DNA of 64,000 nucleotides. Origin: Spirochaetota bacterium. GTDB lineage: Bacteria; Spirochaetota; UBA12135; COTS27; JAFLEE01. The DNA is taken from NCBI GenBank assembly GCA_017302015.1, contig JAFLEE010000019.1, positions 2,551-66,550 on the forward strand. Direction: 5' to 3'. Below, piece by piece: positions 1-18,510 of this stretch (position 1 is its first letter; every line of letters begins with the position of its first letter). Position numbers and translations under genes: made by a program. The notes beneath the pieces are model-generated. The model did no database searches and was not told where the DNA came from. It saw nothing but the letters and a program-made list of their open reading frames with translations.

Positions 1-346
1 GATTTTTGAAAATGCCCATAATTGATTTTTCTGGATTTCTTTCCAACCCTTTTGATTTCACGAAAATTGCCTTTGTATGGGAAAGTAATTTTGGTTTCAG
101 AAACTGCCGTTTTTGATTTTTCTGGATTTCTTCTCTTAACTCGTTGGGTCATTCGCTTTGGAGCACTACTTGATTATTTCCTTCTGATTTCAAAGAGGTT
201 ACTTTGGTTTGAAGATCAATTTCATTGCCCAGGTTCAGTTTTTGTTTCAGATTTCTTGATTTCTGATTCCTCATTTGATTCTGATCAAATTTCTACAATT
301 CCTATTCTCTTGATTCCTTTTCTGCATCTCTTTTGATTTCGCCTAA

Positions 347-464
347 CGTGGCGTTCAGCAGCGCCGATATTTAAATGGTCCTTTCGAATACGAAATACAT
401 TTCGAAAAACGGGTAAGTTCGAAGGCAAAGCCGGTGCGGCGTCTGCTGCAACGAATTGTTCGAG
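347..464 (-). other. attC of cassette 6 (about 118 bp). On the - strand: R'' CTCGAAC, then L'' aattcgttgcagcagacgccgc, then L' gcggcgctgctgaacgccac, then R' G|TTAGGC.
   Basis: L''/L' are inverse-complementary (cgttgcagcagacgccg versus cggcgctgctgaacg). R'' CTCGAAC is the exact reverse complement of G+TTCGAG, the cassette's own 5' end, as expected for a circularised cassette. The AACAATTCGTT...GACGCCGC start resembles class-1 59-be sites. Confidence 0.6.
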
Positions 465-599
465 TGCCTTTCTCATTCTGAGATTCCTGATCTCTTTTCT
501 TCATGTTTTCTCTATTTCTGAAATTCTTCAAATCTCTTCATCTGTCCTTACTTTTTGGATTTTGACCTAAGTTTTTTGTATTCCCCTGAGTCACTCGAA
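347..599 (-). repeat. Cassette 6, an ORF-less 253-bp gene cassette. It is copy 1 of duplicated element R1, near-identical to 3321..3574.
   Basis: Direct repeat of about 254 bp with only a few mismatches to 3321..3574. Bounded by G|TTCGAG (G 600 from the preceding attC) and ...ccacG|TTAGGC (G 347). No ORF of at least 60 aa that is confined to the element. Confidence 0.6.
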
Positions 600-650
600 C
601 GGTTAGGTTGAGCGGCGACCCTTGGGCGTCCGCTCGAACCTTTGTTAGGC
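600..650 (-). other. Short attC (about 51 bp) ending cassette 5. On the - strand: R'' GCCTAAC, L'' ggttcgagcggac, L' gtcgccgctcaacctaacc, R' G(600)|TTCGAG.
   Basis: Perfect RYYYAAC inverse core. Imperfect L''/L' inverted repeat (ggtt..gagcgg). Lies immediately 3' of cassette ORF 759..1403. The crossover G is followed by the start of the R1 cassette. Confidence 0.5.
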
Positions 651-758
651 CGTTAAAAATACCAATACCTCTCGACTGTTTTGTTGCCCAGACCTCTGGA
701 GAAGCAAATTTTGTTTTGGAATTTCATCATTGCATACTCATTTGTCAAACGTAGCGAA

Positions 759-1403
759 TCATCTTTCTGAGATTGAGTTTTTTACTTTTATCGAAAACGC
801 CAATACATCAACGCCATCTCGAAAATTAAATAACCGAATCGCCAGATTATTTCTAAAAATAGTCACGGAGTTCGTTTTATGTGCCCTTGTGCTGTCACTA
901 GGAAATCGAACTGGAGTGTTTCGCTCAATAAGTAAGATAGTGTTTGTCTCAATCATAATTAGCGAGTGCATCGAGGCATACAAGTCAACCGAGCCCGAGC
1001 CCTGTGTTGCCGATTCCAGAAAGACCATGTATCGAGTGGTCTCGCTCGACTTACTATAGTAGAGTTTGCCAACCGCAATTCTGTTTGTGGCCGAATCGAA
1101 ATACTCTAAGCCATCTTGATCGTTACATTTTAAAATTTTGAATGCACTCGGCTTATTGCTTCTTGAAAAAAATCGAGTTTCAACCCCAGAAATCCATGGG
1201 ACGTTCGATTCTGTTATTGGGCCATTGTTTCTTTGGCCACAAAATGAGGTTTCGTAGTCATTGTAGTGCAATCCCAACTTAAATACATTAAGTGAATTTG
1301 AAAAATCCACTATTTGTATCTTATGGTTGTATACTGATTCTGATATTGGAAAGCAATTAAGCGCCAAAATAATACATAGAAAAGAAATTTTACAACAAAT
1401 CAT
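759..1403 (-). CDS. Cassette-encoded hypothetical secreted protein (214 aa) with an N-terminal signal-peptide-like segment MICCKISFLCIILALNC.
   Basis: Complete ORF inside cassette 5 (1463..600). ATG preceded by a GAGGA Shine-Dalgarno 8 nt upstream. AT-rich codon usage typical of cassette DNA. No recognisable domain. Confidence 0.6.
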   Translation of the reverse strand: MICCKISFLCIILALNCFPISESVYNHKIQIVDFSNSLNVFKLGLHYNDYETSFCGQRNNGPITESNVPWISGVETRFFSRSNKPSAFKILKCNDQDGLEYFDSATNRIAVGKLYYSKSSETTRYMVFLESATQGSGSVDLYASMHSLIMIETNTILLIERNTPVRFPSDSTRAHKTNSVTIFRNNLAIRLFNFRDGVDVLAFSIKVKNSISER

Positions 1404-1463
1404 ATGATATCCTCAGATACTGTTGCTATATAAAAAGGTTTTATTATTCGCGCATTCATATAA

Positions 1464-1674
1464 CGCCAGGCACTCAAGAAATGCACCGTAACAAGCCTAT
1501 CATGAGAAGACGAGGAAAGTTCACCGGTGCATTTGGTTCGGAAGGGCGCCCGAAAAGAGGGCGATAAATCCCAGAAAGCCCTCTTTTCGGGCGCTCTGGA
1601 GAACCTGACGAACCCCCCCCCCCGGAGGCCGAAGGCCGGAGCGGGGGTGAGGAACTTGAGTGGCCTCGTTAGGT
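1464..1674 (-). other. attC of cassette 4 (211 bp, 'giant' attC). On the - strand: R'' ACCTAAC, then L'' and two long internal hairpins, then L' cttgagtgcctggc, then R' G(1464)|TTATAT.
   Basis: Outer imperfect inverted repeat (aacgccaggcactcaag / cttgagtggcctcgtt). R'' ACCTAAC equals the reverse complement of G+TTAGGT, the 5' end of its own cassette at 2227. About 85% identical to 2228..2435 and 3050..3252. Confidence 0.6.
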
Positions 1675-1777
1675 GAAAAGACTGGGCGGCGCAGGATGCG
1701 CCTCTTCTCTTGTATTTTGCGTTGAACAACGCCAAGAAACGAAGGCGCGAATTCCAAGTCGAGTAAAGCGAAAAAAA

Positions 1778-2137
1778 TCATTTCGATGCGACCCATTTTT
1801 CATACTGCACATAGTCCCTCTGGATTACCTCTTTTTCAAACAACTTCGAAACTGCACCACCAAAAGAAATTTTATCAGTATATTCTGGATATTCGGCCTT
1901 AGAAATTACATCGCGATAATCAATAATTGCAATTTCGATTTGGTTTCGAAGTCTTTCAATATTTTTAGATGAATTTCTGATAGCGTCGATCCAAACCCTG
2001 TACCTACCGTTTTTGCTGCCCTCACCAGAATACTTCATCAGTATAGAGAATACCATGTCGAAAGATTCCCGCGGAAACTCACGAGTAATAATTCTATTGA
2101 CGTCTTCAATTGAAAAAACCGGTACTTTCTGATCCAA
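1778..2137 (-). CDS. Cassette-encoded hypothetical protein (119 aa). TTG start as listed. GGAGA Shine-Dalgarno 8 nt upstream.
   Basis: Only ORF inside cassette 4 (2227..1464). An in-frame upstream stop limits the N-terminus. No recognisable domain. The start codon is uncertain (TTG or ATT). Confidence 0.5.
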   Translation of the reverse strand: MDQKVPVFSIEDVNRIITREFPRESFDMVFSILMKYSGEGSKNGRYRVWIDAIRNSSKNIERLRNQIEIAIIDYRDVISKAEYPEYTDKISFGGAVSKLFEKEVIQRDYVQYEKWVASK

Positions 2138-2227
2138 GAGAATCTCTCCAATATGGATATTTCATGATTTCATTTTGAACATCTTAGGCCGCCAGGAAGG
2201 CGGCCTCTTGCCCAGGCTTTTTACCTA

Positions 2228-2435
2228 ACGCCAGACACTCAAGAAATGCACCGTAATAAGCCTACCATGAGAAGACGAGGAAAGTTCACCGGTGCATTTG
2301 GTTCGGAAGAGCGCCCAAAAAGAGGGCGATAAATCCCCGAAAGCACTCTTTTTGGGCGCTCTGGAGAACCTGACGAATCCCCCCGGAGGCCGCAGGCCGG
2401 AGCGGGGGTGAGGAACTTGAGTGGCCTCGTTATGC
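2228..2435 (-). other. attC of cassette 3 (208 bp, 'giant' attC). On the - strand: R'' GCATAAC ... R' G(2228)|TTAGGT.
   Basis: Same architecture as 1464..1674. R'' GCATAAC is the reverse complement of G+TTATGC, the cassette's own 5' end at 3049. R' GTTAGGT fits the GTTRRRY consensus. Confidence 0.6.
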
Positions 2436-2493
2436 GCAATGGTCGGGCGCCGCAGGATGCGGCTCTTATTCTTAAATCGATTTAGATCCATAT

Positions 2494-2994
2494 TCAACTT
2501 TCCATTTCGATTCCCATGATTTTTAAAGAATTTGAAATTATACATGACAATACGTACTGTGTTGCATTCCCAGGAAGGGAAAAATCGAAACGCGTGTGTT
2601 CATTTTCAATATTCAAATAAATGCCAATTCTTTTAAGTATCATGACATTTGAAAATTCTACTTCGGTTGGATTCTTTTTCTGAAACAGCGATATTTTAAC
2701 CGGATCAGCAAGTTCTTCGCGGTGATGGTCGAAATACAACCTTGGAGATCTACCCGAATCAGCTATTTTAAATTCACATAAAATATTTTCAATACAACGA
2801 GTTCTTATTTTTTCTGATTCTTTCAAAATCATTTTAACAAGATCTGATTTCAATGAAATATCGGCGCCTGGTTCAATATTCAGGTCGACCGCAACAGGAT
2901 ACCCATTTACGATCAACGTAGAATCATAATAGTCCATGTGACCTTTTTGAGGAATCATTCCGAATGGATTGAAATCAAAGGTCTTCATTGACAT
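2494..2994 (-). CDS. Cassette-encoded hypothetical protein (about 166 aa, MSMKTFDFNPF...).
   Basis: ORF inside cassette 3 (3049..2228). The listed ORF starts at TTG 3000. ATG at 2994, or ATG at 2988 with GGAG 7 nt upstream, is a more likely start. No recognisable domain. Confidence 0.55.
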   Translation of the reverse strand: MSMKTFDFNPFGMIPQKGHMDYYDSTLIVNGYPVAVDLNIEPGADISLKSDLVKMILKESEKIRTRCIENILCEFKIADSGRSPRLYFDHHREELADPVKISLFQKKNPTEVEFSNVMILKRIGIYLNIENEHTRFDFSLPGNATQYVLSCIISNSLKIMGIEMES

Positions 2995-3049
2995 CTCCAA
3001 AATCTTTGGCCGCCACGATGGCGGCCTCTTGCCCGACTATTGCGCATAA

Positions 3050-3252
3050 CGCCAGGCACTCAAGAAATGCACCGTCTAGAGCCTACCATGGAACCTTGTG
3101 GAAAGTTCACCGGTGCATTTGGTTCGGAAGAGCGCCCCAAAAGAGGGCGATAATTCCCAGAAAGCCCTCTTTTGGGGCGCTCTGGAGAACCTGACGAACC
3201 CCCGAGCCGACCTTGGCGAGCGGGGTGAGGAACTTGAGTGGCCCCGTTATAT
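3050..3252 (-). other. attC of cassette 2 (203 bp, 'giant' attC). Cassette 2 (3320..3050) contains only 68 bp plus this attC and has no ORF. On the - strand: R'' ATATAAC ... R' G(3050)|TTATGC.
   Basis: Same three-hairpin architecture as the other two long attC sites. ORF 3060..3281 lies entirely within the repeat and is judged non-coding. Confidence 0.55.
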
Positions 3253-3320
3253 GAATGCGCTCTAGTCAATTTCATCCCCATTTTCTTCTCTTTTCAATCA
3301 TTCCTCAGTTCTTCGCCTAA

Positions 3321-3574
3321 CGTGGCGTTCAGCAGCGCCGATATTTAAATGGTCCTTTCGAATACGAAATACATTTCGAAAAACGGGTAATTTCGAAGGC
3401 AAAGCCCGTGCGGCGTCTGCTGCAACGAATTGTTCGAGTGCCTTTCTCATTCTGAGATTCCTGATCTTTTTTCTTCATGTTTTCTCTGTCTCTGAAATTC
3501 TTCAAATCTCTTCATCTATCCTTACTTTTTTTGATTCTGACCTGAGTTTTTTGTATTCCCTTGATTCACTCGAA
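3321..3574 (-). repeat. Cassette 1, the attI-proximal cassette (254 bp). It is copy 2 of duplicated element R1. Its own attC lies at 3321..3438 (R'' CTCGAAC at 3432..3438 on the + strand as gttcgag; R' G(3321)|TTAGGC).
   Basis: Near-identical to 347..599. Bounded by G(3575)|TTCGAG and ccacG(3321)|TTAGGC. Confidence 0.6.
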
Positions 3575-3669
3575 CAAGAATTAGGCGATCGCCAGTAATC
3601 CCCCACCCACGCCCGTTTCACCCGAATTGTCCCGGTTCTGTTTTTTCACAAAAGAGCATAGCATGCCCT
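3575..3669 (-). other. Candidate attI and intI promoter region. The crossover is predicted at G3575|T3574.
   Basis: 95-bp region between the intI start codon and the first G|TT cassette boundary. Contains the palindrome ggcgatcgcc. The assignment rests on position only. If R1 copy 2 is not a cassette, attI would instead end at G3321. Confidence 0.35.
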
Positions 3670-4902
3670 ATGCAACTAAAACGCCCAAACCCCGATGAAA
3701 TCAAGGCTTTTAAAGCGCACTTACTCGATTCCGGCCATCCCGAAAACCGGGTGGCCTGGTCCATCAAATGGCTGGAACGCTTTTTGGTGGAATGTGCGGA
3801 TCCAATCTTGACGGACCAGACTGTCAACCAATATTTACATTCCCTGGAGGGGCGATTTTTAGACTGGCAGGTGAGGCAGGCGTCCGAGGTGATTTCCCGC
3901 TATGGGGCTTGGTCGGGTGGAGTGAGTTTGGATGGAGAGCCGAAGGATTCAGCGCTGATCGCCGAGGCGAAGGCGCAGATCCGCCTCCTCCACTATGCCT
4001 ATCGCACCGAGCAGAGTTACCTCGATTGGCATCGGCGGTTTCTCAGGTTTCGGCGGGAGGAGGGGCTCCCCCTTGAGGCGCGTGCACTATCCTCTTTTTT
4101 GAGGAAGTTAAATGAAGGCGATGGAGTAGCCGCCTCGACCCTCAATCAGGCGCATCACGCGGTGGCCTTTCTCTTTAAGCACGTCCTTCGGAAGGAGGTG
4201 GATGCCCTGGAAGAGGTGCCGCTGGCGAAGCGGCCGAAAAGACTCCCTCAGGTCATTTCGCGGGAGGAAGTTTCTCGCCTGCTTTCGCAGATGAATGGGA
4301 CCACGGGGATCATGGGTGCGCTCCTCTACGGTTGCGGATTACGACTGATGGAATGCTGCCGATTACGGATAAAAGATATCGATCTAACGGGGAAGGGGGT
4401 CATGGTTCGGGGTGGGAAGGGCGGGAAGGACCGCAGGGTGCCCTTACCGCGGCGGCTCGAAGAAATCCTCGCCCAACAGATGCGCGTGGTGAAGCTCCGG
4501 CATGAAAGCGATGCCGAGCAGGGCATCCCCGTGTCCCTTCCCGAGGGCCTTGAGCGGAAGTACCCCGGCGCGGGCCTCGAGTGGCCATGGTTCTACGTGT
4601 TCCCTTCGGGGTCGACGTGCCAGCATCCCCGCCTTGCCTTGGTGGTGCGCCACCATCTCTTCGAGGACACGCTTCAACGGGCGGTGAAGGTGGCGGGAAT
4701 CCGGGCGAACCTATCGGTGCCGGCCCATTGCCATCTATTACGCCATTCCTATGCCACCCATCTTTTGGAGGCCGGGACGGATATCCGCACCCTCCAGGAA
4801 CTCCTCGGGCACCGCGATGTGTCCACCACCATGATCTATACCCACGTGATCCAGAGGCCGGGCCAGATGGTATCAAGTCCGTTGGATCTTCTTGGGCCTT
4901 AA
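3670..4902 (+). CDS. intI: Integron integrase IntI (tyrosine recombinase, 410 aa as annotated). A GTG start at 3922 would give a typical 326-aa IntI.
   Basis: Motifs read from the translation: IRLLHYAYRTEQSY (IntI N-terminus), the IntI-specific additional-domain signature LERKYPGAGLEWPWFYVFPS, VVRHH, HLLRHSYATHLL (HxxR) and GHRDVSTTMIYTHV (catalytic Tyr). Confidence 0.92.
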   Translation: MQLKRPNPDEIKAFKAHLLDSGHPENRVAWSIKWLERFLVECADPILTDQTVNQYLHSLEGRFLDWQVRQASEVISRYGAWSGGVSLDGEPKDSALIAEAKAQIRLLHYAYRTEQSYLDWHRRFLRFRREEGLPLEARALSSFLRKLNEGDGVAASTLNQAHHAVAFLFKHVLRKEVDALEEVPLAKRPKRLPQVISREEVSRLLSQMNGTTGIMGALLYGCGLRLMECCRLRIKDIDLTGKGVMVRGGKGGKDRRVPLPRRLEEILAQQMRVVKLRHESDAEQGIPVSLPEGLERKYPGAGLEWPWFYVFPSGSTCQHPRLALVVRHHLFEDTLQRAVKVAGIRANLSVPAHCHLLRHSYATHLLEAGTDIRTLQELLGHRDVSTTMIYTHVIQRPGQMVSSPLDLLGP

Positions 4903-5255
4903 GGAAGGTTCTAAGAATTGGATCGATTGGATTTCAGAGGCGAATCCCTCTGACTTGATGTGTTGAGGAGTTCCCGCCGTTGAAGATGCGGGAATGATTG
5001 GGTGGCGGGAAAAAGCGTCTTGAGGCGTTTTAAGGTTCGATAGGATGGATCTCGCGAATGGCGCATTGGGGATGATGACCCTGTTTGCGCGAGGGATGCG
5101 TAGGGGAAGCCTGCCGCAGGCAGGCCGCAGCGAAGCGGAGCCCGAAGCAGCCCGACCCCGCAAGTTGGGTGGGGTGTGGAGAGGGGAAGCAGGAGCGGGG
5201 GCGCGCCCGAAAGTATCGGGAAATACCCTTTGCGCGTGTTTTGTACGCCCCGGCG

Positions 5256-5654
5256 CTATTTGTAATTTTCCCTCATGTGGATGATGTAGCGCGAGATCGC
5301 CATGCGCTCTTCCAGCGAGAGGAAGGGGTTCTTCGGCATGGCGGACTTCACGTTCGTGAGGCCCGTGCGGATGGTGGCGGCCATGGCTTCCTGGGAACTG
5401 CCCTGCAGGTAGGCGTTCGTCAGGCGGAAATCCATGGGCGGCGGCACCAGGCGGGAGGCTCGATCGCCATTCCCGTGGCCCGCGATCCCGTGGCACGCCG
5501 CGCAGCCCCGGATATGGTAGAGGGAGCGCCCCTGGAGGAGTTCATCGCGCTCGGCCTGGGGCATGGCGGCGAGGGCCGCGGGCATTTGGGGTCTTTGGGG
5601 CGAACACGCGGCGAGGAACAGCATGAGAAAGAGGGCGAAGGAAGTTCGGCGCAT
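5256..5654 (-). CDS. c-type cytochrome lipoprotein (CAACH haem-binding motif, LAAC lipobox).
   Basis: CxxCH motif. Signal peptide with lipobox. 132 aa. Confidence 0.7.
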   Translation of the reverse strand: MRRTSFALFLMLFLAACSPQRPQMPAALAAMPQAERDELLQGRSLYHIRGCAACHGIAGHGNGDRASRLVPPPMDFRLTNAYLQGSSQEAMAATIRTGLTNVKSAMPKNPFLSLEERMAISRYIIHMRENYK

Positions 5655-5782
5655 GGGGTATCATTTCATGGATTGGCGCCTGCGGCCCACGACAGTCGCG
5701 GTGGGACGGCTTTCCGGTTTTGTCGGCGGGGTTTGATAATATCGTGGCCTAGGAGTACATTCTCTCACTATAGGAGACCCGC

Positions 5783-6199
5783 GTGAAAGTGATCCTGGCC
5801 CTTCCCATTTTCGCCCTCTTGGCGTTGCTCCCCGCCGGCTGTGGAGGGTCCCGATTGGTCACCGTTGCCGTGGGGGGGCAGGAGCCGTCAGATCCCGCTT
5901 CTGGCCGCAGTCTCTTCATGCGCAGCGGCTGCTTCCAATGCCATGGGATGGGCGGGGAAGGGGACGGCGCCATGGCGGCTTCGCTTCGCAATCCTCCCCG
6001 GGATTTCCGCAAGGTCGATGCCTTCAAGGGCGGCACCCAGGTGCGCCAGATCGCCTTCACCATCAAGTACGCCAGCCAGTGGAGCCGTGTGACGAACCAA
6101 AGCCTGGAGGGGATGCCCGATTTCTCCCAATTGCCCGACGGCGAATTGATGGCCCTCGCTTCCTACGTGAAGTACCTCCAGACCAATCAAGCGCGGTGA
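5783..6199 (+). CDS. c-type cytochrome lipoprotein (CFQCH motif). GTG start with a TAGGAG Shine-Dalgarno.
   Basis: CxxCH motif. LPAGC lipobox. Divergent from 5256..5654. Confidence 0.7.
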   Translation: MKVILALPIFALLALLPAGCGGSRLVTVAVGGQEPSDPASGRSLFMRSGCFQCHGMGGEGDGAMAASLRNPPRDFRKVDAFKGGTQVRQIAFTIKYASQWSRVTNQSLEGMPDFSQLPDGELMALASYVKYLQTNQAR

Positions 6200-6268
6200 G
6201 CCGTGCGAGCGTGTATACTATAGAAGAAAGTGCCACGATAAGCGTGGAACGAAGAAGCGGAGTCAAGC

Positions 6269-6811
6269 ATGTCCTATGAGTCCATGAACGGCAAAGCGGG
6301 TGGGATAGTCTGGCGGCGGCGCGCCATCATCGGCCTCTCCATCGCGGTGCCCCTGGCGGTGGCCGCTCTATTCCGGGTGCATCTCCCCGGGCATGATCTC
6401 TCTTTCCTTCCTCCGATCTATGCGGGCATCAACGGGGTCACGGCGCTGCTCCTCATCGCGGCGGTCTGGGCGGTGCGCCACGGGCGCCGCTCCCTCCACC
6501 AGGGCCTCATGAAGACTTGCATCGGGCTCTCCGCCTCTTTTCTCGCCATGTATGTCGCCTATCATATGACGAGCGAGACCACCCATTACGGCGGGGTCGG
6601 GCCCGCACGGGCCGTTTACTTCTTTATCCTCATCACCCATATCGCCTTCTCCACGGCCATCACCCCCCTCGTGCTCCTCACCTTCTCCCGGGCCCTCGAC
6701 GGGCGCTTCGATCGCCACAAAGCCCTCGCGAGGTTCACCTTCCCGATCTGGCTCTACACTTCGGTCACGGGCGTCGTGGTCTATTGGATGATCCGGCCCT
6801 ATTACCACTGA
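6269..6811 (+). CDS. DUF420-family integral membrane protein (CtaM-like; often associated with haem-copper oxidases).
   Basis: About 180 aa and four predicted TM segments. Family assigned from overall similarity recalled from memory. Moderate certainty. Confidence 0.45.
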   Translation: MSYESMNGKAGGIVWRRRAIIGLSIAVPLAVAALFRVHLPGHDLSFLPPIYAGINGVTALLLIAAVWAVRHGRRSLHQGLMKTCIGLSASFLAMYVAYHMTSETTHYGGVGPARAVYFFILITHIAFSTAITPLVLLTFSRALDGRFDRHKALARFTFPIWLYTSVTGVVVYWMIRPYYH

Positions 6812-6840
6812 GGCGTATCTCTCCGCCGTCGTCGACCCCG

Positions 6841-7659
6841 ATGCCCCTCGCCAAGATCCTCGAAGCGCGGCAGGCCCCGGGCGTAATTTGGGATCGCCGC
6901 TCGAGGGGGATGGAGCGCTCCCACCGCCACGAGGAACTCGAGATGAACCTGGTGCGCGGCGGCCGGGCCACCTACCTCCTCGGCCGGGAGCGCATCGAAC
7001 TCGCCCCGAGGAGCCTCGTGTGGTTCTTCCCCGACGAAGAGCACCTGCTTGTCGAGACGACCCCCGATTTCCGCATGTGGCTCGGCATTTGGCAGCCCGA
7101 TTTCCCCGCGCTCCTCGCACGGGAGGGGGGGCCGGCGGCCCTCGCTGCGCGCCGCGGTTTAGTCCACCACCGCCGGCTTCCCGCCGTTTCCTTCGAGGGG
7201 CTATCCCAACTCTGCGAAGCCGTCTCTTCGTCAACCCCCGCGGCGGCCCAGGCTGCCCACCGGTTCCTGCTCCACCGCGCCTGGCAACTCTTTGGCGAGT
7301 CGCCCTCGGAGGCGGGCACCGACGTGCATCCCGCCGTCGCCCGGGCCGCCTCCATCCTCCAGGAGGAGCAGGATCTTTCCGTGGGCGAATTGGCCCGGCG
7401 CCTCGAGCTCACCCCGGACCATCTTGGGCGCCTGTTTCGCAAGCAACTCGGCCTTTCCCTCGGGGAGTACCGCACCCGCGAGCGCCTCCTTCGCGTGCGC
7501 GAACGGGTGAGCTTAGGCGGGGCGGATCTCACCGCCGCGGCCCTCGCCAGCGGATTCGGGAGCTATAGCGCTTTCTACCGGGCCTGGAAACGCGCCCACG
7601 GGGAATCCCCCCTCCAAGTCTTGGGGCGCCCCGTGGCCCCTCAGCCCGGCCCGAGGTAG
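6841..7659 (+). CDS. AraC-family transcriptional regulator (cupin sensor plus C-terminal HTH).
   Basis: C-terminal AraC HTH (LSVGELARRLELTPDHLGRLFRKQLGLSLGEYRTRERL). The listed ORF 6517..7659 carries a spurious N-terminal extension that overlaps the DUF420 gene. Confidence 0.75.
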   Translation: MPLAKILEARQAPGVIWDRRSRGMERSHRHEELEMNLVRGGRATYLLGRERIELAPRSLVWFFPDEEHLLVETTPDFRMWLGIWQPDFPALLAREGGPAALAARRGLVHHRRLPAVSFEGLSQLCEAVSSSTPAAAQAAHRFLLHRAWQLFGESPSEAGTDVHPAVARAASILQEEQDLSVGELARRLELTPDHLGRLFRKQLGLSLGEYRTRERLLRVRERVSLGGADLTAAALASGFGSYSAFYRAWKRAHGESPLQVLGRPVAPQPGPR

Positions 7660-8507
7660 CGATTGCGGAATGCGCCGGGCGTCTCTCCGGTGCGGCGCTT
7701 GAATTGGCGGAGGAAGGCGAAGACTTCCGGGTACCCCAGCCTTTCGGCGATGGCCGTGGCCGAGAGGCCCCGATCCATGAGGAGGAGCTTGGCCCGGTCC
7801 ATCTTTTCGGAGAGCCTGTAGTCCTTCGGGGAGAGCCCGGTGGCTTCCTTGAAGATCCTTCGGAATTTCTCGTAGGGCATGCCCGACGCCCGGGCGACGG
7901 CCTCCATCGAAAGCGGCTGGTCGAGTTTTGCGGCGAGGAGGGCGCGGGCCCTGTCGAGGACGAGGCCGTCGCCTCGGCGCCTGCTGGAAGCCTCGACCTC
8001 CCGTTCCACCATGCGGAAGATATCGAGGAGGGCGATGAGGCGCGCCGCATAGTGGCGGGCCCGGTGGAAAGCCGCACTCGCCTCGCGCAGGGCCGCGAAA
8101 AGCGGCGCGGGATCGGCGAGGCGGAAACTTCGGCGGGAGGGATCGAGGAGAGAAAACTCGACCAGAACCGCATAGATGGACGGGGGGGCCACGATGGCGA
8201 ACTCGCTATAGCCTCCGGCGCGATAATGGATGGAATGGCGCAACCCCGGCGCCCGCCACAGCAGCGTCCCGGGTTCGAGGGGGATGGATTCTCCCTGGGG
8301 CGTGGTGAAATCGGCCCCGCCCCGGGCCGTGAGGGAAAAGCGGAAATCCTGGTAGGCCACCCCCCGGGCCGCCGACGACAGGGCCCGGTGGGCCGGCACG
8401 CGCCAGGGTCCGAGGATGAGGATTTGGGTTCCCGAGCGCCCCGCGAGGAGCGACGAACGCAGGAATCCGAGGAGGGGATCGCTCGCGGGCATCCCCAAAT
8501 CTGCCAT
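7641..8507 (-). CDS. AraC-family transcriptional regulator.
   Basis: AraC HTH motifs (SMEAVARASGMPYEKFRRIFK; GLSATAIAERLGY...FRNRY). Divergent from the 8587 operon. Confidence 0.8.
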   Translation of the reverse strand: MADLGMPASDPLLGFLRSSLLAGRSGTQILILGPWRVPAHRALSSAARGVAYQDFRFSLTARGGADFTTPQGESIPLEPGTLLWRAPGLRHSIHYRAGGYSEFAIVAPPSIYAVLVEFSLLDPSRRSFRLADPAPLFAALREASAAFHRARHYAARLIALLDIFRMVEREVEASSRRRGDGLVLDRARALLAAKLDQPLSMEAVARASGMPYEKFRRIFKEATGLSPKDYRLSEKMDRAKLLLMDRGLSATAIAERLGYPEVFAFLRQFKRRTGETPGAFRNRYLGPG

Positions 8508-8586
8508 ACCCCCTCGTCTTTTGCCATAGGGCCCCCGCGGGCTCCGGCCTATAATTTAGGAAAAGACCGAGCCCCTTGGAGTCCCC

Positions 8587-9426
8587 GTGAAACGATCTCG
8601 ACTTAGATTGTGGACCTTGGCCCCAGCCGTTGCGATCCTCGCCTGGTGCACCGCCGCGCCTGTGACCCGGAGCCTCCCCCTGGATTTCGGCGCCTACTCC
8701 GTGAAGGTGGACGCCTTCGGCGTGGTGAAGGACGTTTCCGTGGACGGGCGGGTCTGGATCTCCCTCGTGCACCTCATCGATACCGGCAATTACGAGGGGC
8801 GGGTCGGGAACACCCGGGTTTGGCAGGGTGAGAAGGAGATCGAGGTGGCGGGGGGCGCCACGTCCCTGGAGCGGGTGGACGGGGGCCTTCGGCTGACCCG
8901 GTCCGCTCTCGTGGGGAACGCCCAGTACCCCGATTTCGTCGCCTACCGGGAAACCCTGGTCCTGGGAACCAACGGCCTCCTCGAGTTCGAATACCTGCTC
9001 ACGATGAGACAGGACGTGGTCTACCTCAGTTTCGCCTTCCCCCAGATCCGCGTTTCCCTCCCCATGCCCGCGCTCCTGGACCGCCCGATCCGCCTCGTCG
9101 ACAAGGACGAGATCCCGTCCCTCTTTACCTTCATCGACGATCCCAAGCAGATGAAGGGGACGCGCCTGCCCTGGGTGCAGGCCTTCGACCTTCTGGTGGC
9201 CCCGCTTCGCATCCTCTCCATCCGCTCCTCCTTCCCGACGATCTCCGTCAGCGATTCCCGCGCATGGGGCGGCAACGACTTCGACCTCCGCTCCAGCGGT
9301 CCGCTGCCCGAGTGGAAGGAGAAGTTCCCGGTGGTCCGGGGCGCCACCAAGAAGATCGACCTTTCGATCCAATTGCCCCTCGCCCGAGCGGCGGTCGTCC
9401 CCGCCCTCCAGGAGCCCGCCCCATGA
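8587..9426 (+). CDS. Hypothetical secreted protein (279 aa) with a signal peptide.
   Basis: N-terminal signal sequence. Stop codon overlaps the next gene's start (ATGA, 4-bp overlap). Confidence 0.55.
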   Translation: MKRSRLRLWTLAPAVAILAWCTAAPVTRSLPLDFGAYSVKVDAFGVVKDVSVDGRVWISLVHLIDTGNYEGRVGNTRVWQGEKEIEVAGGATSLERVDGGLRLTRSALVGNAQYPDFVAYRETLVLGTNGLLEFEYLLTMRQDVVYLSFAFPQIRVSLPMPALLDRPIRLVDKDEIPSLFTFIDDPKQMKGTRLPWVQAFDLLVAPLRILSIRSSFPTISVSDSRAWGGNDFDLRSSGPLPEWKEKFPVVRGATKKIDLSIQLPLARAAVVPALQEPAP

Positions 9427-12400
9427 AACCCTCGCGCAAGACCCTCGCCGCCCTCGCCCTTTTCGGAGGCATGCTCATGGCCGAGTTCACCCTGGAACCC
9501 CGGGAAAGTTACGTCCCCGCGAAAACTCGGATCCCGGGCTTCGAGGCCGCGCGCCGGCCGGAGGAAGGTTTCTTGTTCGCGCCCGTGCCCGATTCTTGGA
9601 AGGTCACCCCGCTCGACGGGCGTTGGCGGGTGCTCCTGGCGACCCACGAGGCCGCGGTCGATTACCTGGCCATCGACGAGCATTTCGGCCCGGTGAAGAT
9701 CGCCGACCTCTTCGCCCAGGGAGACGCCTACCCCGGCCTCATTTCGTTCCCGGTGCCCTGGTCCCTCTCCTTCCAGAAGCAGGCCGACGGCACGGTCAAG
9801 GAGTTTCGGGGCTTCGGCTATTACACCCGGGAATTCGAGGTGCCTGCCTTCGGGAAAGACCAGGCGCTCTTCCTCTGCTTCGAGGGCGCGGGGTGGCGCA
9901 CCGACGCCTGGGTAGACGGCCAATACCTCGGCTCCCACCAGGGCCCTTTCGCCTCCTTCGAGTTCGATCTGAGCAAGGCCGTGAAACCCGGGGCGAAGGC
10001 GCGCCTGGTGGTGAAGACCCTCCACACCCGCTACGGCCTCTCCTACCTGGGGGACCTCGATGTGGGGATCATCGCCCCGGTGCGGCTCATGGTGCGCGAC
10101 GCCCTCCACGCCAAGAACGTGCGCGTGAAGCCCGATTTCGCCAACGGGAGCCTGCAGGTGCGCTTCGTGGCGTCGAACCCGGCCCGCCTGCCCGCCGCCC
10201 CCGTCTCGGCGACGGTGGAAGGGCCCAGAGGCGAGCGGCTGGGGAGTTTCAAGGGGAACCTGCCCTTGGCCGGCGAGCCGATATTCTCCATCCCCCTGGC
10301 GAACCCGCAGCCTTGGTCCCCCGAGAACCCCGCCCTGCTCACCTTGAAACTCTACCTCGGGGGCCATCCCGCGGCGGTGGTGCGCTTCGGGTGGCGCAGC
10401 CTCGAGATCAAGGCCGGCGAAGACGGGCGCCAGCATTTCATGCTCAACGGGCAACGCCTTTATGCCCGGGGCTTCGAGTTCGATACCTGCTGGAATTTCC
10501 GCAAGGCCGCCCGTGCGCTGCCCATCGAGGAGGGCGGTTGGGGCTACAACCGCGCGGGGTGGCTGCGCGAGGCCCTGCTCGTGATGAAGTTCGCCAACGT
10601 GAACGTGCTGCGCCCCCATTCGATGAATAATTTCCATGGGGAGACCTTCTACCGTCTCTGCGACGAACTCGGCTTCCTGGTCAACCTCGACTGGAACGGG
10701 AGCCAATACCATTTCTCGCCCGTCCAGAAGGGCCAGCGCGGGCAGGACCACCGCATCGAGAGCCTGGAGAAGACGCTGCCGTCGTTCCGGGAGGTCCTCG
10801 CGCGCCTGCACAACCACCCCTCCCTCGGTTTCATCAGTTTCGGGAACGAACTCTACGACTGGGAACTCTCCCCGGGGCGGACCTACGACCCCGTGCTCAC
10901 CCAGTACTACGAGGCCCAGAAGGCCGGCGACCTGTGGAACCGCCCGGCCAGCGGGTCCTCCGGGCGCCCCGTGTACGCGGGCCGCGCCCCCGTGGATTTC
11001 GTCGACCACCACCAGTACATCGGCGTCTACTACGGGTCGTGGCAGGAGGTGCGGCGCTACCTGCGCGAGACGCGCTCGATGATCCAGGACCGCTTCGGGG
11101 CCGCGCTGCCCTTCGTGAACTACGAGACCGGCGACGTCGCCGATTTCCGAGTCCATGCGGCCAATTTCCTCGAATGGGCCCCCGATCTGCGCAAGGACGT
11201 TTTCGACAAGGCCCTCTTCATCCGCAATGTCCAGGACAAGAGCGATATCAAGGCCTGGGCGCGCCTGGCCTTCAATACCGGCGGCCTGCGGCCCTATCTC
11301 TGCGCGCTCCCCGAGTACCGCGCGCGCAAGAGCGACCTCATGGTGAAGCGCTACCTCGAACTCTTCCGCGTAAACCGAGACCTCACCGACGGGGTGTCCC
11401 TCAACACGATGTCGTTCACCCTGGCGAGCGTCGTCGACCCCGACTACCGAAGCGGGACGGGGGGGCCCCGCGTGCAGCCCTGGCCCGACGGCTCGGATCT
11501 CGTGCTCACCGACCCGGTCTACCGGTTCCGCGCGGCTTTCTCCCCGGTGCAGGCTTTCCTCGACCTGGAGCACGCCCACCCGATCGCAGGCCAGACGGTC
11601 AAGGCCTCCCTCGTGTTGGTGAACGATTCCGAGAAAGGGGCTTCGTTCGACCTCAGCCTGCAGTGGCGCGGCCCCGACGGCAAGGCCCGCGCCCCTTGGG
11701 TGAAGGGGGGCTTTTCGTTGGCCGCCGGCGCCCACCTAAGGCAAGCTTTCCCGATCGAAGTGCCCGCCGACCTCACGAGCGGCAAGCAGGTCCTGGAGGT
11801 CTACCTCTCCTCCGCCGGCGTGAAAATCTCGGAGAATTCCTACGACTTCTACATGCTCTCGCCCCGGGACCGCCGAACGCGCTTCCCCGCGAAGAAAGTG
11901 GCCGTCTACGACTTGGTGGCGAGCCGTTTCGCCGGATTCGGCATGGCCAGCACCAAGGGCATGCTCGAGCAATTGGGGATCCCCCACGACCTCATCACCA
12001 ATTTCGAACGCCTCGCGGAGTACCCGGTCCTCCTCATCGGGGCCAATTCCTTCGACGCCGGGCTCATGAAATCGGGCGAGGCCCTGCACCGCTGGCTATT
12101 GGCCGGCGGGCGCCTGGCGGTCTTCGAGCAGACCACGGGGTCGGCCGTGCCTTGGAGCCCTGAGGACCGCATCACCGTGCTCGGCAAAAGTTCCTTCGTC
12201 GAGCATTGGTACCCCAAGCACCCGCTTTTCCGGGGGATCGAGAACGAGATGGCCTGGGAATCCCCGGCGGGACGCAACGGCGCGCTCTTCGACACCTGCC
12301 TCGAACTAAATGATTCCTTCCTCTCCGTCGCCGCCGTGGCCCATTTCCAGGACGCCTCCTCGGCGGTGAAGGCCGTCATCACCGATCGCCGCCTGGGAAA

Positions 12401-13184
12401 GGGCGAGTACCTCCTCTCCATGATCGGCACCGCGGAGCGCTTCGGGAAGGACGGCACGATCACCCGGTACGTGGAAAACCTGCTCGATTACCTGCTGGGG
12501 GACGAGATCTCCCCGTACGCCGTGCCCGCGAAGAATACCGGTTTCCTCGCCCAGAAGGTCATCGCCCTGGCCAAGGAAGACGCCGAGTTCGTCGACCTGC
12601 GCGCCGCGGTGAACCGGGGATTCGCCGACGAGAAGGCCGCCGACGGGGAGGGCGGATGGACGGACTACGGCCGCGACAGCGATATGCGCGCCATCCCCCT
12701 GGGCGTGACGCCCTTAAGCGGCCTCGTCCCCTTCACCGTCATCGACCCCTCCCGCAACGGGGGGCGCTCGTGCCTGGTGCTGCGCGGGCCCACGCGGGAG
12801 GCGTTCCCGGCCGAGGGGCCGAAGATCGCGGTCGGCCGGAAATTCGAGAAGCTCTTCTTCCTCCACACGTTCATGTACGTGAAGGCGTCGGCGAACGAAC
12901 CGATCGTCGAATACCTCATGACCTACGACGACGGAAAAACCGAACGCTTCCCCGTGAAGAAGGGCGTGGACGGCGGGGATTGGTGGCAGGCGAAGGACCT
13001 CCCCAACGGCGCCACGGTCTACCGCGACGGCGACAAGGGGCTCTACGCCAGCGAATGGGTGAACCCGAACCCGAAAAAGGCCATCGCCAGCATCCAGGCC
13101 TTCGCCACCGGGAAGGCCATCCCGATCCTCATCGCCGTCACGGGCAAGAAGAAATTCGCCCAGACCATCGATAAGGAAGAGTAA
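9423..13184 (+). CDS. Large secreted multidomain glycoside hydrolase, family 2-like (1253 aa).
   Basis: N-terminal GH2 sugar-binding jelly-roll signature (FRGFGYYTREFEVP...LCFEGAGWRTDAWVDGQYLGSHQGPFASFEFDL) followed by beta-sandwich/TIM-like regions and an extra C-terminal domain. The true start is at ATG 9423 (MKPSRKTLAALALF signal peptide), not the listed 9264. Confidence 0.65.
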   Translation: MKPSRKTLAALALFGGMLMAEFTLEPRESYVPAKTRIPGFEAARRPEEGFLFAPVPDSWKVTPLDGRWRVLLATHEAAVDYLAIDEHFGPVKIADLFAQGDAYPGLISFPVPWSLSFQKQADGTVKEFRGFGYYTREFEVPAFGKDQALFLCFEGAGWRTDAWVDGQYLGSHQGPFASFEFDLSKAVKPGAKARLVVKTLHTRYGLSYLGDLDVGIIAPVRLMVRDALHAKNVRVKPDFANGSLQVRFVASNPARLPAAPVSATVEGPRGERLGSFKGNLPLAGEPIFSIPLANPQPWSPENPALLTLKLYLGGHPAAVVRFGWRSLEIKAGEDGRQHFMLNGQRLYARGFEFDTCWNFRKAARALPIEEGGWGYNRAGWLREALLVMKFANVNVLRPHSMNNFHGETFYRLCDELGFLVNLDWNGSQYHFSPVQKGQRGQDHRIESLEKTLPSFREVLARLHNHPSLGFISFGNELYDWELSPGRTYDPVLTQYYEAQKAGDLWNRPASGSSGRPVYAGRAPVDFVDHHQYIGVYYGSWQEVRRYLRETRSMIQDRFGAALPFVNYETGDVADFRVHAANFLEWAPDLRKDVFDKALFIRNVQDKSDIKAWARLAFNTGGLRPYLCALPEYRARKSDLMVKRYLELFRVNRDLTDGVSLNTMSFTLASVVDPDYRSGTGGPRVQPWPDGSDLVLTDPVYRFRAAFSPVQAFLDLEHAHPIAGQTVKASLVLVNDSEKGASFDLSLQWRGPDGKARAPWVKGGFSLAAGAHLRQAFPIEVPADLTSGKQVLEVYLSSAGVKISENSYDFYMLSPRDRRTRFPAKKVAVYDLVASRFAGFGMASTKGMLEQLGIPHDLITNFERLAEYPVLLIGANSFDAGLMKSGEALHRWLLAGGRLAVFEQTTGSAVPWSPEDRITVLGKSSFVEHWYPKHPLFRGIENEMAWESPAGRNGALFDTCLELNDSFLSVAAVAHFQDASSAVKAVITDRRLGKGEYLLSMIGTAERFGKDGTITRYVENLLDYLLGDEISPYAVPAKNTGFLAQKVIALAKEDAEFVDLRAAVNRGFADEKAADGEGGWTDYGRDSDMRAIPLGVTPLSGLVPFTVIDPSRNGGRSCLVLRGPTREAFPAEGPKIAVGRKFEKLFFLHTFMYVKASANEPIVEYLMTYDDGKTERFPVKKGVDGGDWWQAKDLPNGATVYRDGDKGLYASEWVNPNPKKAIASIQAFATGKAIPILIAVTGKKKFAQTIDKEE

Positions 13185-13283
13185 ACCGGGCGGGGCGAAG
13201 CCCGAGGTTGGCTGCGCCGGGTTCCCGGGCATCCCCGGGCGGGGAGGGGAGACCCCCCGCGAAAGGGCGCAGTATAATCTTCC

Positions 13284-14504
13284 ATGGAACATTTCATCCC
13301 CGTCGATAAAGCGCAGGTGCTGGCCCAGCTCCTGGCCGATCCCGCCTGGAAAAAGGGAGAAGCCGCGGCCTTCCGCGAACTTTTCGAGCTCCTCGAGCAT
13401 TTCTTCCATAATGAGGCCTACCGCCTCAACCGGGAACTCAAGAACCGCTACGCCCCCATCGATCCCGACCGCGACCTGCGCGACCTCTCGGGGCAGGCCG
13501 GGAGAACGGCGAAGGTCGATCCCGCCGGATTCCGGCGGTCCCTCGACCAGGTGCTCAAGGGGGGCAATTACCGCGTCGTCGGCGCGGCGGAATTGGACGC
13601 CGCCTTCGCCGCCTCCGATCTGGTGGGGCTCAAACTCTCCATCGACCTCGAGGATTACGACGAACTGCTCATCGCCGTGCGGGGGCACCGCACGGTGACG
13701 GAAACGGTGGGGCGCCTGTTCTTCCTCAAGAAGGAGATCGCGGTGGAACTCCACGAGCGGGTGCTCCTCTACGCCCGCTGGAAGCCCGCCGACTATTTCG
13801 CCGCCAAGAAGCGCCGGGGCCTCCCCTTCGTCCCCGGCACGGGGAACCTCAAACTCTTCAAGGACGTTCCGAAGAACGACCTCGAGACCATCCTCCCCAA
13901 CGCCGTGCCGCGCATGAACCTGCTCGACAAGATCCTCCTCTTCGGGCCGGGCATCGGCGGGGGCATCCCCATCCTCACGGCCAAGGTCGTCCCCGCGGTC
14001 CTCGGCCTCGCGCTGGCCTGGAAATCCGGGGAGGCGCTGCGGGGGCACAAACTCTACCAGGGGATGATGGAGGGGCTCCTCGCCCTGGGCGTGCTCTTCG
14101 GCTACCTGTTCCGCCAGTACAACGGCTACGTCGCCAAGAAGATCAAGTTCGCCAAGATGCTCACCGAGAGCCTCTACTTCAAGGCCCTGGGGAACAACGC
14201 CGGGGTCTTCCACGCGCTCCTCGACGCCGCCGAGGATGAGGAGCAGAAGGAGACCATCCTCGCCTATGCCTTCCTCCTGCGCGCCGAGCGCCCGCTGACG
14301 ATGAAGGAACTCGACGGGCGCATCGAGGCCTGGTTCGCCGCGCGCGGGGTGAACCTCGACTTCGAGGTGGACGACGCTTTGGCGAAACTCGCGCGCCTGG
14401 GGCTCGGGAAGAAACGCGGCGGGAAGTGGACCGTGCTCCCCCTGGAGAAGGCCAAGCGCCGGGTGGATTGGCTCTGGGATAACCTCTTCACGTTCAACCG
14501 GTGA
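13284..14504 (+). CDS. Hypothetical protein with a central hydrophobic region (possibly DUF3754-like).
   Basis: 406-aa ORF with good codon usage. Family guess only. Confidence 0.45.
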   Translation: MEHFIPVDKAQVLAQLLADPAWKKGEAAAFRELFELLEHFFHNEAYRLNRELKNRYAPIDPDRDLRDLSGQAGRTAKVDPAGFRRSLDQVLKGGNYRVVGAAELDAAFAASDLVGLKLSIDLEDYDELLIAVRGHRTVTETVGRLFFLKKEIAVELHERVLLYARWKPADYFAAKKRRGLPFVPGTGNLKLFKDVPKNDLETILPNAVPRMNLLDKILLFGPGIGGGIPILTAKVVPAVLGLALAWKSGEALRGHKLYQGMMEGLLALGVLFGYLFRQYNGYVAKKIKFAKMLTESLYFKALGNNAGVFHALLDAAEDEEQKETILAYAFLLRAERPLTMKELDGRIEAWFAARGVNLDFEVDDALAKLARLGLGKKRGGKWTVLPLEKAKRRVDWLWDNLFTFNR

Positions 14505-14646
14505 CAAAACGGGCCCGCCCTTCGGCTCGGTCGCCCCGAAACGCCCCGTGGACCCGCCCTTGCCGGGGGCCGATTCGGATGATTCACTGGGGCCATGCCC
14601 GCCGCGGTCCCCGGGTCGGGGCCCCAGCCGGCGGGGAGGATGCGAC

Positions 14647-15018
14647 ATGCCCTGGAAAGCCCGCCTCAACGGGGAACCGGTCTTCGTCGAACTCACCTAT
14701 TCGGGGATGGTCACGCCCCAGGATCTCCTCGAGGCCTTGGCGGCCGCGGGGAAACTCGCCCAGGAGGGCCGCACCCAGCGCTTCCTCGCCGATCTCACGA
14801 CCATGATTGGCGGGCACTCCATCGCCCACCTCTACGAACTCATCACCCTCCTCGAGGCCAACGGCGTCGACCGGGCGATGAAAGAGGCCATCGTGAGCCC
14901 GAACCTCGACGGCAACCAGGAGCAGATGCGCTTCTACGAGACCGCCTGCCTGAACCGGGGCTATCGCGTCCGCCTGTTCCGCGCCCGCGGGGAGGCGCTC
15001 GCCTGGCTCTTCGCCTGA
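14647..15018 (+). CDS. Hypothetical small protein (123 aa).
   Basis: ATG at 14647 (MPWKARLNGEPVFVE...). The upstream part of the listed ORF is P/R/G-rich and likely non-coding. Confidence 0.4.
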   Translation: MPWKARLNGEPVFVELTYSGMVTPQDLLEALAAAGKLAQEGRTQRFLADLTTMIGGHSIAHLYELITLLEANGVDRAMKEAIVSPNLDGNQEQMRFYETACLNRGYRVRLFRARGEALAWLFA

Positions 15019-15025
15019 GGGCCCC

Positions 15026-16969: not shown

Positions 16970-17209
16970 GGATGCTCCTGTGAAAAAGGCCCTTTCGCGC
17001 CCTCATGGCGCGGGCGATTTTCGGGGGCTTCCCGGCCCCGCACAGAAGGGCGACTTCTGTGTATACAGGAAACAATCTAACCCGATAGCGGCCTTCCCGG
17101 TCAATCGAGGGGGAAAAGTGCCTTGGCCGTTATCGCGTTGAACTCGGAGGCGAATTGACGGGAATGGGGTGCGGGGCGCGGCCATCCCGCGATGTGGCTG
17201 GGAACGCTT

Positions 17210-18100: not shown

Positions 18101-18165
18101 GTTTTGCAGGTTCTCGCTATTTTAATATCCCCAGGAAATCCTACACTATCCGCAGAGGATCTTAA

Positions 18166-18489
18166 ATGGAAAGCAGAATTCATCCCGAACTCGGTGCTGA
18201 CGTCCGCCCCGCCCCTTCGGAGGCCAGGGGGGTCGCCGCCTGGGAGTTCACGGGTTTCCTGGCGGGTTTCGCGGGGTGCGCCTGCCTGGCCGCCCAGTTG
18301 ATCGCCGAATGGCGGGCCGCGACGACGAGTCTCTCCCCGGTGAACACCGTGGGCTTCCTGATCATCTTCGCCTTTTGGGCGGCCTACGGGTTCCGCTTCG
18401 GCCGCAAGGCCATGTGGATCACCAACGGGGTGGCCGTCGTGCTCCAGGCGGGGCTCATCATCGTGTCATTGTCTAAATTAGCGCGTTAG
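18166..18489 (+). CDS. SemiSWEET-like small sugar transporter (3 TM, 107 aa).
   Basis: Pattern G.lAgfag...laAQli..w......S....vgFliifafWaaYGf.....witNgvavvLq matches SemiSWEET/PQ-loop topology, with AQ in place of PQ. Adjacent to a glycoside hydrolase gene. Confidence 0.5.
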   Translation: MESRIHPELGADVRPAPSEARGVAAWEFTGFLAGFAGCACLAAQLIAEWRAATTSLSPVNTVGFLIIFAFWAAYGFRFGRKAMWITNGVAVVLQAGLIIVSLSKLAR

Positions 18490-18510
18490 CCGGTCAGGGG
18501 CCGCTATTCT

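Follow-up and report, generated by a model that had tools for sequence, protein, structure and literature searches.

R1, a probably mobile gene-less cassette with two copies, probably inserted separately, in a spirochaete-type integron array

No part of an integron array is understood less well than its gene-less cassettes, and recent work shows that many of these are mobile promoters. In the window (the whole 64,000-nt stretch of Spirochaetota DNA analyzed here), one such segment, R1, occurs twice beside an integron integrase gene, which raises the questions of what R1 is, how the two copies arose, and what its non-attC part (the cargo) does. The preliminary description proposed a recent integrase-mediated duplication or re-insertion of a non-coding cassette or, alternatively, duplication of part of an extended attI/Pc region. 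That description had the type of element and of event right but not the recency, and its attI alternative is rejected. Judged from sequence comparison, R1 is very likely a mobile gene-less cassette whose two copies are separate insertions, neither of them a fresh copy of the other. The features first needed are these:

3321..3574, minus strand: R1 copy A, gene-less cassette in first position, 254 nt, TTCGAG...CCACG
347..599, minus strand: R1 copy B, 253 nt, inserted after the short attC of the cassette with ORF 759..1403
3575..3595, minus strand: attI core, GCGATCGCCTAATTCTTG↓ (the arrow marks the crossover), crossover G at 3575
3670..4902, plus strand: intI, integron integrase, 410 aa including an N-terminal extension of about 95 aa

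Both copies sit in a cassette array that occupies the left 3.6 kb of the window, runs leftward from intI, and reads on the minus strand. Their coordinates and bounds were given correctly at the outset: the copies are 95.3% identical (blastn), differ by 10 substitutions and one 1-nt indel (repeat finder and pairwise alignment), and both run from G↓TTCGAG to G↓TTAGGC, with no third copy found by blastn in the 64-kb window. On the 5' side, identity between A and B begins exactly at the crossover G↓TT, upstream of which lies attI for copy A (junction 3574/3575) and a 52-nt attC (600..651) for copy B. On the 3' side, identity stops 9 nt beyond the crossover, CCACG↓TTAGGCGAA, and the sequences diverge thereafter. 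The crossover TTCGAG departs from TTRRRY at two positions; with attI and intI adjacent, the boundary is that of an integron cassette. An assembly artefact was considered as the source of the copies and rejected, since they differ in both sequence and flanks.

The integrase matches TIGR02249 with 357.9 bits (cut-off 265) as well as Pfam PF13495 and PF00589, and its residues 96-410 are 100% identical to the NCBI entry "MAG: integron integrase [Spirochaetes bacterium]". The extension of about 95 aa (3670..3957) precedes the TIGR02249 match, and the NCBI annotation starts at residue 96 (315 aa). Homologues of 406-430 aa cover the extension, at 93-100% query coverage, so the 410-aa long form is probably real.

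A canonical attC (the 59-base element, e.g., that of aadA7) has the order R''-spacer-L''...L'-spacer-R', carries AAC/GTT, and keeps two extrahelical bases. The attCs of R1 can be compared with it directly.

3321..3438, minus strand: attC of copy A, 118 nt, folded in array and circular forms; L boxes common to an attC in contig L047
347..464, minus strand: attC of copy B, 118 nt, folded in array and circular forms

The R1 attC reads R'' CTCGAAC, AATTC, L'' GTTGCAGCAGACGCC, and then L' GGCGCTGCTGAAC, GCCAC, and R' G↓TT. Its R'' (CACTCGAAC) is complementary to the G plus TTCGAGTG of its own cassette's 5' end over 9-10 nt, with 9 nt kept in all four copies of R1 described below, just as had been claimed for the inverse core. 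Such complementarity is the signature of a circularizable cassette; together with the G↓TT junctions, one of them at attI, it upholds the identification of R1 as a non-coding integron cassette. In the array form, folding the bottom strand as single-stranded DNA pairs the L box, in which two bases bulge out, and gives a three-way junction as terminal structure. For the circular form, the junction was rebuilt as ...CCACG + TTCGAGTGA... and the bottom strand folded in the same way: an R box of 10 bp (CACTCGAACG/CGTTCGAGTG) now forms, followed by an unpaired spacer, the L box with its two extrahelical bases, and a terminal structure that branches three ways. The energies are -33.0 kcal/mol for copy A and -31.1 kcal/mol for copy B.

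The R1 attC is a canonical attC. It shares with the aadA7 type the box order, AAC/GTT, the unpaired central spacer, the two extrahelical bottom-strand bases, and a variable terminal structure, and its 118 nt are within the known range. It differs in its circular-form R' core, GTTCGAG, which departs from GTTRRRY, and in lacking detectable sequence similarity to plasmid-borne attCs: blastn found no relative of it among 72,556 plasmids. The earlier label of an "internal class-1-like attC" is therefore apt for the site itself and for its architecture, but not for its sequence, nor for its place, since the attC makes up the 3' 118 nt, its normal position in a cassette. Under the established integron model, the integrase would excise R1 as a circle, whereby the attC would gain a perfect 9-10-bp R box, and the circle would re-insert at a G↓TT, either at attI (copy A) or at the attC of another cassette (copy B, at the 52-nt site called S here).

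Further copies were reached by searching protein databases with spurious ORFs that lie on R1 and on a neighboring long attC, a route that led to contigs L045-L050. A 58-aa ORF of R1 had a single match, P0121, in an exhaustive HMMER search of 1.84 billion representative proteins, and a profile search of 5.8 billion clusters returned the same single match. P0121 is itself a translated R1 copy (copy D), its other C-terminus and length being due to an indel and a replaced attC center. It led to contig L045 (JGI 3300028898, Ga0310364_1398820, 3,977 nt), a cassette array with two further R1 copies.

L045:724..976: R1 copy C, after a NUDIX gene and a short S-type attC
L045:3275..3529: R1 copy D, after an AAA_21 ATPase gene pair and an S-type attC
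600..651, minus strand: short attC S, 52 nt, fold z -4.1; crossover G (600) joined to copy B
3250..3320, minus strand: leader after copy A, purine-rich, TTAGGCGAAGAACT...CTAGAGCGCATTCATATAAC
1..346, minus strand: sequence after copy B, purine-rich, ORF-less, TTAGGCGAAATC...; runs off the window

R1 is hence seen in four copies on two contigs, behind attI (A) or behind three different cassettes (B, C, D), with copy B following a 214-aa ORF without known identity and an S-type attC. Downstream, all four continue with TTAGGC(C/G), a purine-rich leader, and a long attC. As for the cassette genes, the NUDIX hydrolase beside copy C is L045:176..688, and the pair beside copy D, an AAA_21/AAA_15-type ATPase and a 159-aa partner (L045:1598..2731 and 2728..3207), is possibly a defence-type pair; the window's own cassette ORFs (759..1403, 1778..2137, and 2494..3000) have no Pfam or NCBIfam match.

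Filled sites have empty counterparts. Sites homologous to S precede copies C and D and also a junction in L049 (NCBI GCA_040960095.1, 412 nt), one of the contigs L046-L050 that were found with a spurious ORF spanning R1 into the long attC as the query. In L049 the S attC is joined straight to the leader, ...GTCGCCGCTCAACCTGAGCG↓TTAGGCCGAGAAAAG..., and in comparison with the copy C locus both flanks are homologous while about 253 nt are absent exactly between G and TT; read from its flanks, this junction is an empty R1 site. L047 holds a second R1-free junction, where a leader comes straight after an attC whose L boxes are of the R1 type but whose R'' is GGCCTAAC. In the related integron L001, the attI crossover has no R1 beside it, and 3 nt away is a leader-like TTAGGC..GAAGAACT; the leader part of this similarity is not significant on its own. 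Four copies in varied contexts, with filled and empty sites, mark R1 as a discrete mobile cassette; by these alignments it is an insertion at integrase crossover points and not part of attI. A genome-contig scan with the integrase found relatives of at most 52% identity and no R1. Two scans of metagenome contigs for exact R1 22-mers found one chance match in a coding region (L044) only; the scanned collection lacked L045, which has both exact 22-mers, so this negative result does not mean absence from JGI data.

What of the proposal that copy A is part of an extended attI/Pc region, duplicated with the platform? Copy A does directly adjoin attI. However, in alignments with L001 and L002, whose integrases are 61% and 62% identical to that of the window, the attI core AAC↓(A/T)AGAATTAGNCG lies immediately right of the crossover, with no similarity to its left, and the same core is readable at the end of L003. 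The core AAC↓AAGAATTAGNCG, kept with these three related integrons, ends exactly at the crossover. In addition, copies B, C, and D come after attC sites rather than attI, R1 has a complete attC of its own, and L049 has an R1-free junction with homologous flanks. The conservation boundary at the crossover and the empty site in L049 lead to rejection of this origin, which is extremely improbable. As a separate observation on this region, a motif GTTTCACCCGAAT-N7-9-CGGT(G)TTC stands 30-55 nt upstream of the intI start in four of four related integrons (window 3615..3638; L001:~93..115; L002:~433..458; L003:~152..177) and is a candidate PintI operator or promoter element.

The next question is whether A and B are a fresh pair, as first thought. 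The pairwise identities, drawn from MAG and metagenome consensus sequences that can be chimeric at repeats, R1 included, are as follows:

A and B: cargo 92.6%, attC 98.3%
A and C: cargo 92.6%, attC 94.1%
A and D: cargo 94.9%, attC 80.2%
B and C: cargo 98.5%, attC 94.1%
B and D: cargo 91.2%, attC 79.3%
C and D: cargo 91.2%, attC 76.7%

In a recent duplication within this genome, copy A would be a fresh re-insertion at attI of a circle excised from B, or the reverse. The A and B attC halves, the closest attC pair of all, speak for this, as does the place of copy A at attI, where new insertions land. The cargos speak against it: those of A and B differ by 9 substitutions and one indel in 136 nt, that of B is nearer to C and that of A nearer to D, and at least five cargo sites, the indel included, back the grouping (A,D)(B,C), while none backs (A,B) with (C,D). 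The recency is thus not supported, and a duplication of this kind is unlikely. The attC halves group the copies otherwise than the cargos do, with A and B closest and D at 77-80%. The center of the D attC has been replaced, and in D the attC has diverged far more than the cargo. A and B show the opposite, their cargos having diverged more than their attCs, and no simple constraint model fits both patterns. The conflict between the two groupings makes the R1 family a mosaic. By their sequences, A and B appear to represent two R1 sub-lineages, both also present on L045, and either the duplication predates a population split, or cassettes are exchanged by way of a common pool and their attC halves have later been recombined or converted. 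A shared cassette pool would then have supplied both R1 sub-lineages, diverged and partly recombined, and each of the two copies would have been inserted on its own.

Large chromosomal integrons such as the Vibrio cholerae superintegron offer a comparison, as cassettes are repeated there within one array through semi-conservative excision and re-insertion. R1 likewise occurs more than once in one array. It differs in that A and B are 4-5% apart and their cargos are each closer to a copy on another contig.

The cargo is the part for which a function has to be sought.

3439..3574, minus strand: cargo of copy A, 136 nt, 74% purine, 10% C, 33% GC, unstructured
465..599, minus strand: cargo of copy B, 135 nt

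A makes up 50% of its bases, G 23%, T 17%, and C 10%. Its RNA fold is no better than those of shuffled controls on either strand (z +0.3 to +1.3; for copy A, +1.1 sense and +1.3 antisense). The purine bias and C depletion are common to all ORF-less array segments (R1 cargo, leaders, and 1..346), which suggests selection on the transcript or on the DNA strand; with a family of four copies, selection on the cargo is inseparable from young age. Local alignment of the R1 cargo with two leaders gives z 3.5-4, too weak for a claim of homology, and its similarity to the leaders or to the first cassette of L002 is weak at most. Consensus scans of both strands of copies A-C for a sigma-70-like promoter (at least 8 of 12) were negative, and no terminator was found in or after R1. 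An Rfam scan of 1..5200 found no family for R1 at E<=1, only chance miRNA-like hairpin matches in the long attCs.

R1 had been called ORF-less, and this stands by the usual criterion for gene-less cassettes, no ORF of at least 70 aa or 210 bp (PMC11014356). Among frames of at least 25 aa there are only a 58-aa frame and a 50/63-aa frame, both overlapping the attC. R1 is gene-less by this criterion; in copy D, the frame in question has lost its stop and extends to 77 aa with an unrelated tail. The reading that R1 encodes a small protein, either the basic 58-aa ORF (3329..3505 and 355..531, minus strand) or the 50/63-aa ORF in another frame, can point to a 58-aa frame that is open in copies A, B, and C. 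This ORF is mostly translated attC stem, however, and copy D, with its 1-nt indel, has another C-terminus and length; four of five substitutions in the frame change the amino acid (hand count); and the other frame ranges from 50 to 170 aa between copies. No ORF is conserved across the R1 copies, no R1 ORF has a Pfam match, and the two exhaustive protein searches found no homologues beyond R1. On the lack of homologues and of a Pfam match and on the mostly non-synonymous change, a small-protein cassette was rejected as highly improbable.

Gene-less cassettes elsewhere provide the closest known precedents. In Vibrio chromosomal integrons, most of the gene-less cassettes assayed have sense promoter activity, and in silico promoter prediction is unreliable for them (PMC11014356, Blanco et al. 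2024), so consensus scans of R1 do not predict its promoter activity. ORF-less cassettes from Treponema and the oral metagenome, one of them in first position, also have promoter activity (PMC6557892, Tansirichaiya et al. 2019). R1 resembles these Vibrio and Treponema cassettes in having its own attC, no ORF of at least 70 aa, and a place upstream of gene cassettes; copy A is in first position, as is Treponema TMB4, and the host is likewise a spirochaete-type MAG. It differs from them in having no predicted promoter, in the unusually purine-rich (74%) and C-poor cargo, and in recurring, as a conserved family of several copies, in alternation with gene cassettes. The intI orientation is also reversed in the Treponema integron, while here it is the usual divergent one. 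Another precedent is the sRNA-Xcc1 cassette of the Xanthomonas campestris integron (cited in PMC6557892), which is ORF-less, like R1, and has a proposed non-protein function; by prediction, R1 differs from it in having no RNA structure, promoter, or terminator.

With these precedents in mind, the roles open to the cargo can be weighed against each other. The length of an untranslated cassette lowers downstream expression (PMC11511950), from which it follows that 254 untranslated nt in first position ought to carry a cost unless R1 compensates in some way. One way would be for the cargo to act in cis on array expression, either as a sense promoter, an option modelled on the other gene-less cassettes, or as a structure-free, Rho-resistant spacer through which transcription reaches the next gene. 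A purine-rich, C-poor composition would be expected of an RNA selected as unstructured and as a poor Rho substrate. A cis-acting cargo deserves serious consideration, at somewhat less than an even chance. Alternatively, R1 may do nothing for the host: as a selfish minimal cassette, it would consist of an efficient attC plus a short tail of junk and would spread by semi-conservative excision and re-insertion. Several copies with no ORF, structure, or promoter motif would fit this, as would the filling of three of three S-type sites in the window and L045, plus attI, by R1 and the fact that the cargo changed more than the attC between A and B. Over the four copies, though, the cargo is 91-98% conserved while D's attC center has been replaced (77-80%), and the strong purine bias and C depletion that the cargo has in common with all other ORF-less array segments suggest selection. 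A selfish cassette is nearly as likely as a cis-acting cargo. Were R1 a trans-acting sRNA cassette like sRNA-Xcc1, one could cite the ability of ORF-less cassettes to encode sRNAs (cited in PMC6557892) and the conserved cargo; but R1 has no Rfam match, shuffled controls are more structured than its cargo on both strands, no promoter is found by consensus scan, and no terminator follows the cargo. An sRNA is accordingly quite improbable.

An antisense promoter would place a sigma-28-like site on the bottom (plus) strand of the attC, firing toward the cargo and, in copy A, on into attI and intI.

3318..3344 and 344..370, plus strand: sigma-28-like TAAC-N15-GCCGATAT, inside the R1 attC

The sigma-28 consensus is TAAA-N15-GCCGATAA/T. 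The second element of the R1 site is GCCGATAA in copy D and GCCGATAC in copy C, so that the overall form is TAAC-N15-GCCGATA(T/A/C). Shuffled sequence gives an expectation of 0 for this motif in the 64-kb window, where the two R1 copies are its sole occurrences; it is kept in four of four copies despite the replaced center of the D attC, and the R1-type attC of L047 that has no R1 cargo also has no motif. Yet the R' box accounts for TAAC, GCCG belongs to the L-box stem, and attC geometry sets the spacing, which leaves only about 3-4 bases free. The chance of such a promoter is slim. Taken alone, GCCGATAT/A is over-represented in the window, with 14 found against 3.5 expected.

A broader reading, and a doubtful one, is that R1 and the leaders are dedicated non-coding modules of a spirochaete-type integron lineage, with R1 re-seeding attI (or S-type attCs) after each gene capture. 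If this were true, arrays would grow as alternating gene and regulatory cassettes, and each gene would get its own promoter and/or Rho-proof, structure-free leader, independent of its distance from Pc. Whichever role applies, R1 belongs to a known class, the gene-less integron cassettes, and leaves the integron model unchanged. Its value is as a clean natural case: conserved and multi-copy, with filled and empty sites, a copy at attI, and an extreme composition. If the cargo controls expression of neighboring cassettes or of intI, the idea of a regulatory cassette extends beyond Vibrio and Treponema; if not, R1 illustrates well what a selfish minimal cassette is.

The surroundings of R1, with their attCs of about 203 nt, R boxes of 15-19 bp, two-attC units, leaders, and GC contrast, are more unusual than R1 itself. 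The usual attC range is 57-141 nt, so a site of about 203 nt exceeds both this range and the default size limit of attC finders. In this integron lineage, the regular attC measures 200-208 nt from R'' to R'.

3050..3249, minus strand: long attC, R'' to R'
2229..2432, minus strand: long attC, R'' to R'
1464..1671, minus strand: long attC, R'' to R'

Long attCs are also present in L045, L046, L047, L048, L049, and L050, and the copies are 76-89% conserved. As single-stranded DNA they form a branched fold with a central hairpin of about 37 bp (z -8.8 and -5.2). In 15 long attCs of the window and L045-L048, an uninterrupted 7-19 nt of the R'' flank (15-19 nt in 13 of the sites) pair with the 5' end of the cassette to which it belongs, against only 1-6 nt with that of the neighboring cassette. 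This pairing with the own cassette and not the neighbor identifies the long attCs as true recombination sites that cross at G↓TT. One of them (L047:2239/1993) has the compensatory pair TAGC/GCTA instead of TAAC/GTTA.

Two "cassettes" of the window, 1463..600 and 3320..3050, break the rule of R'' and 5'-end pairing, and they do so reciprocally. The 5' end of 1463..600 (TTATATGAATGCGCG) pairs over 15 nt with the R'' flank of 3320..3050 (GCGCATTCATATAAC), and the R'' of the S attC finds its partner in the 5' end of 3320..3050 (TTAGGCC / GGCCTAA). L045 shows this swap too, as does L047 (L047:105..1125), and L049 also has a two-attC unit. On the simplest reading of these pairings, such a unit would be a circle made up of an ORF, an S (or R1-type) attC, a leader, and a long attC, in which either site could be used. 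Two-attC units could integrate via S at attI, alternating with R1 insertions at attI, and c3 (3049..2229) and c4 (2228..1464) would be ordinary insertions at a long attC. This would reproduce the order of the window: attI, R1-A, leader-L1, c3, c4, ORF-S, R1-B, and leader. Alternatively, R1 may have entered intact S sites, such as that of L049, by attC x attC insertion, or a deletion between attI and an S site may have left copy A at attI without any insertion there. All of these routes would be integrase-type events.

The leaders are ORF-less, 61-75% purine, and found after every R1 copy. Besides 3250..3320 and 1..346, they lie at L045:977..1120, L045:3530..3671, L047:777..917, and L002:1..92. 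They share the start TTAGGCC.AG and an end of about 50 nt, ..AGAGTTTG.GCATGAA...GCTAGAGCGCATTCATATAAC, even in L002, for all the distance of its integrase. Within 1..346, an exact 20-nt repeat, TTGATTTTTCTGGATTTCTT, occurs at 22..41 and 113..132. The first cassette of L002 (L002:93..393, minus strand) is ORF-less, purine-rich, and 301 nt long, with its own attC of about 117 nt and of other sequence; the same type of leader follows it, so that the layout is as in the window, with no detectable homology to the R1 sequence. In the window, GC content is 42% in the cassette array (1..3574), 35-38% in the cassette ORFs, 59% in intI, and 66% in the rest (5000..64000). The contrast is alike in L002 (array 35%, intI 52%), which makes it a feature of the lineage and not an assembly chimera.

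Cassettes with long attCs also have two hairpins of their own, both found in L046 and L047 too. One, a conserved GGCCGCC-N5-GGCGGCC, lies just after the 5' arm (3008..3026 and 2188..2206, in c3 and c4). The other, which is GCCGCATCCTGCGGC-like, lies just before the 3' arm (2449..2463 and 1688..1702), and on the plus (antisense) strand it is followed by a T-rich run and scores as terminator-like. In L050, the long attC at 465..700 has arms, GGGGCACTTCGCATAAC / GTTATGCGAAATGCCCC, that pair in place and is a complete stand-alone site, flanked by direct repeats of about 150 nt (about 60..270 and 905..1112) rather than by cassettes.
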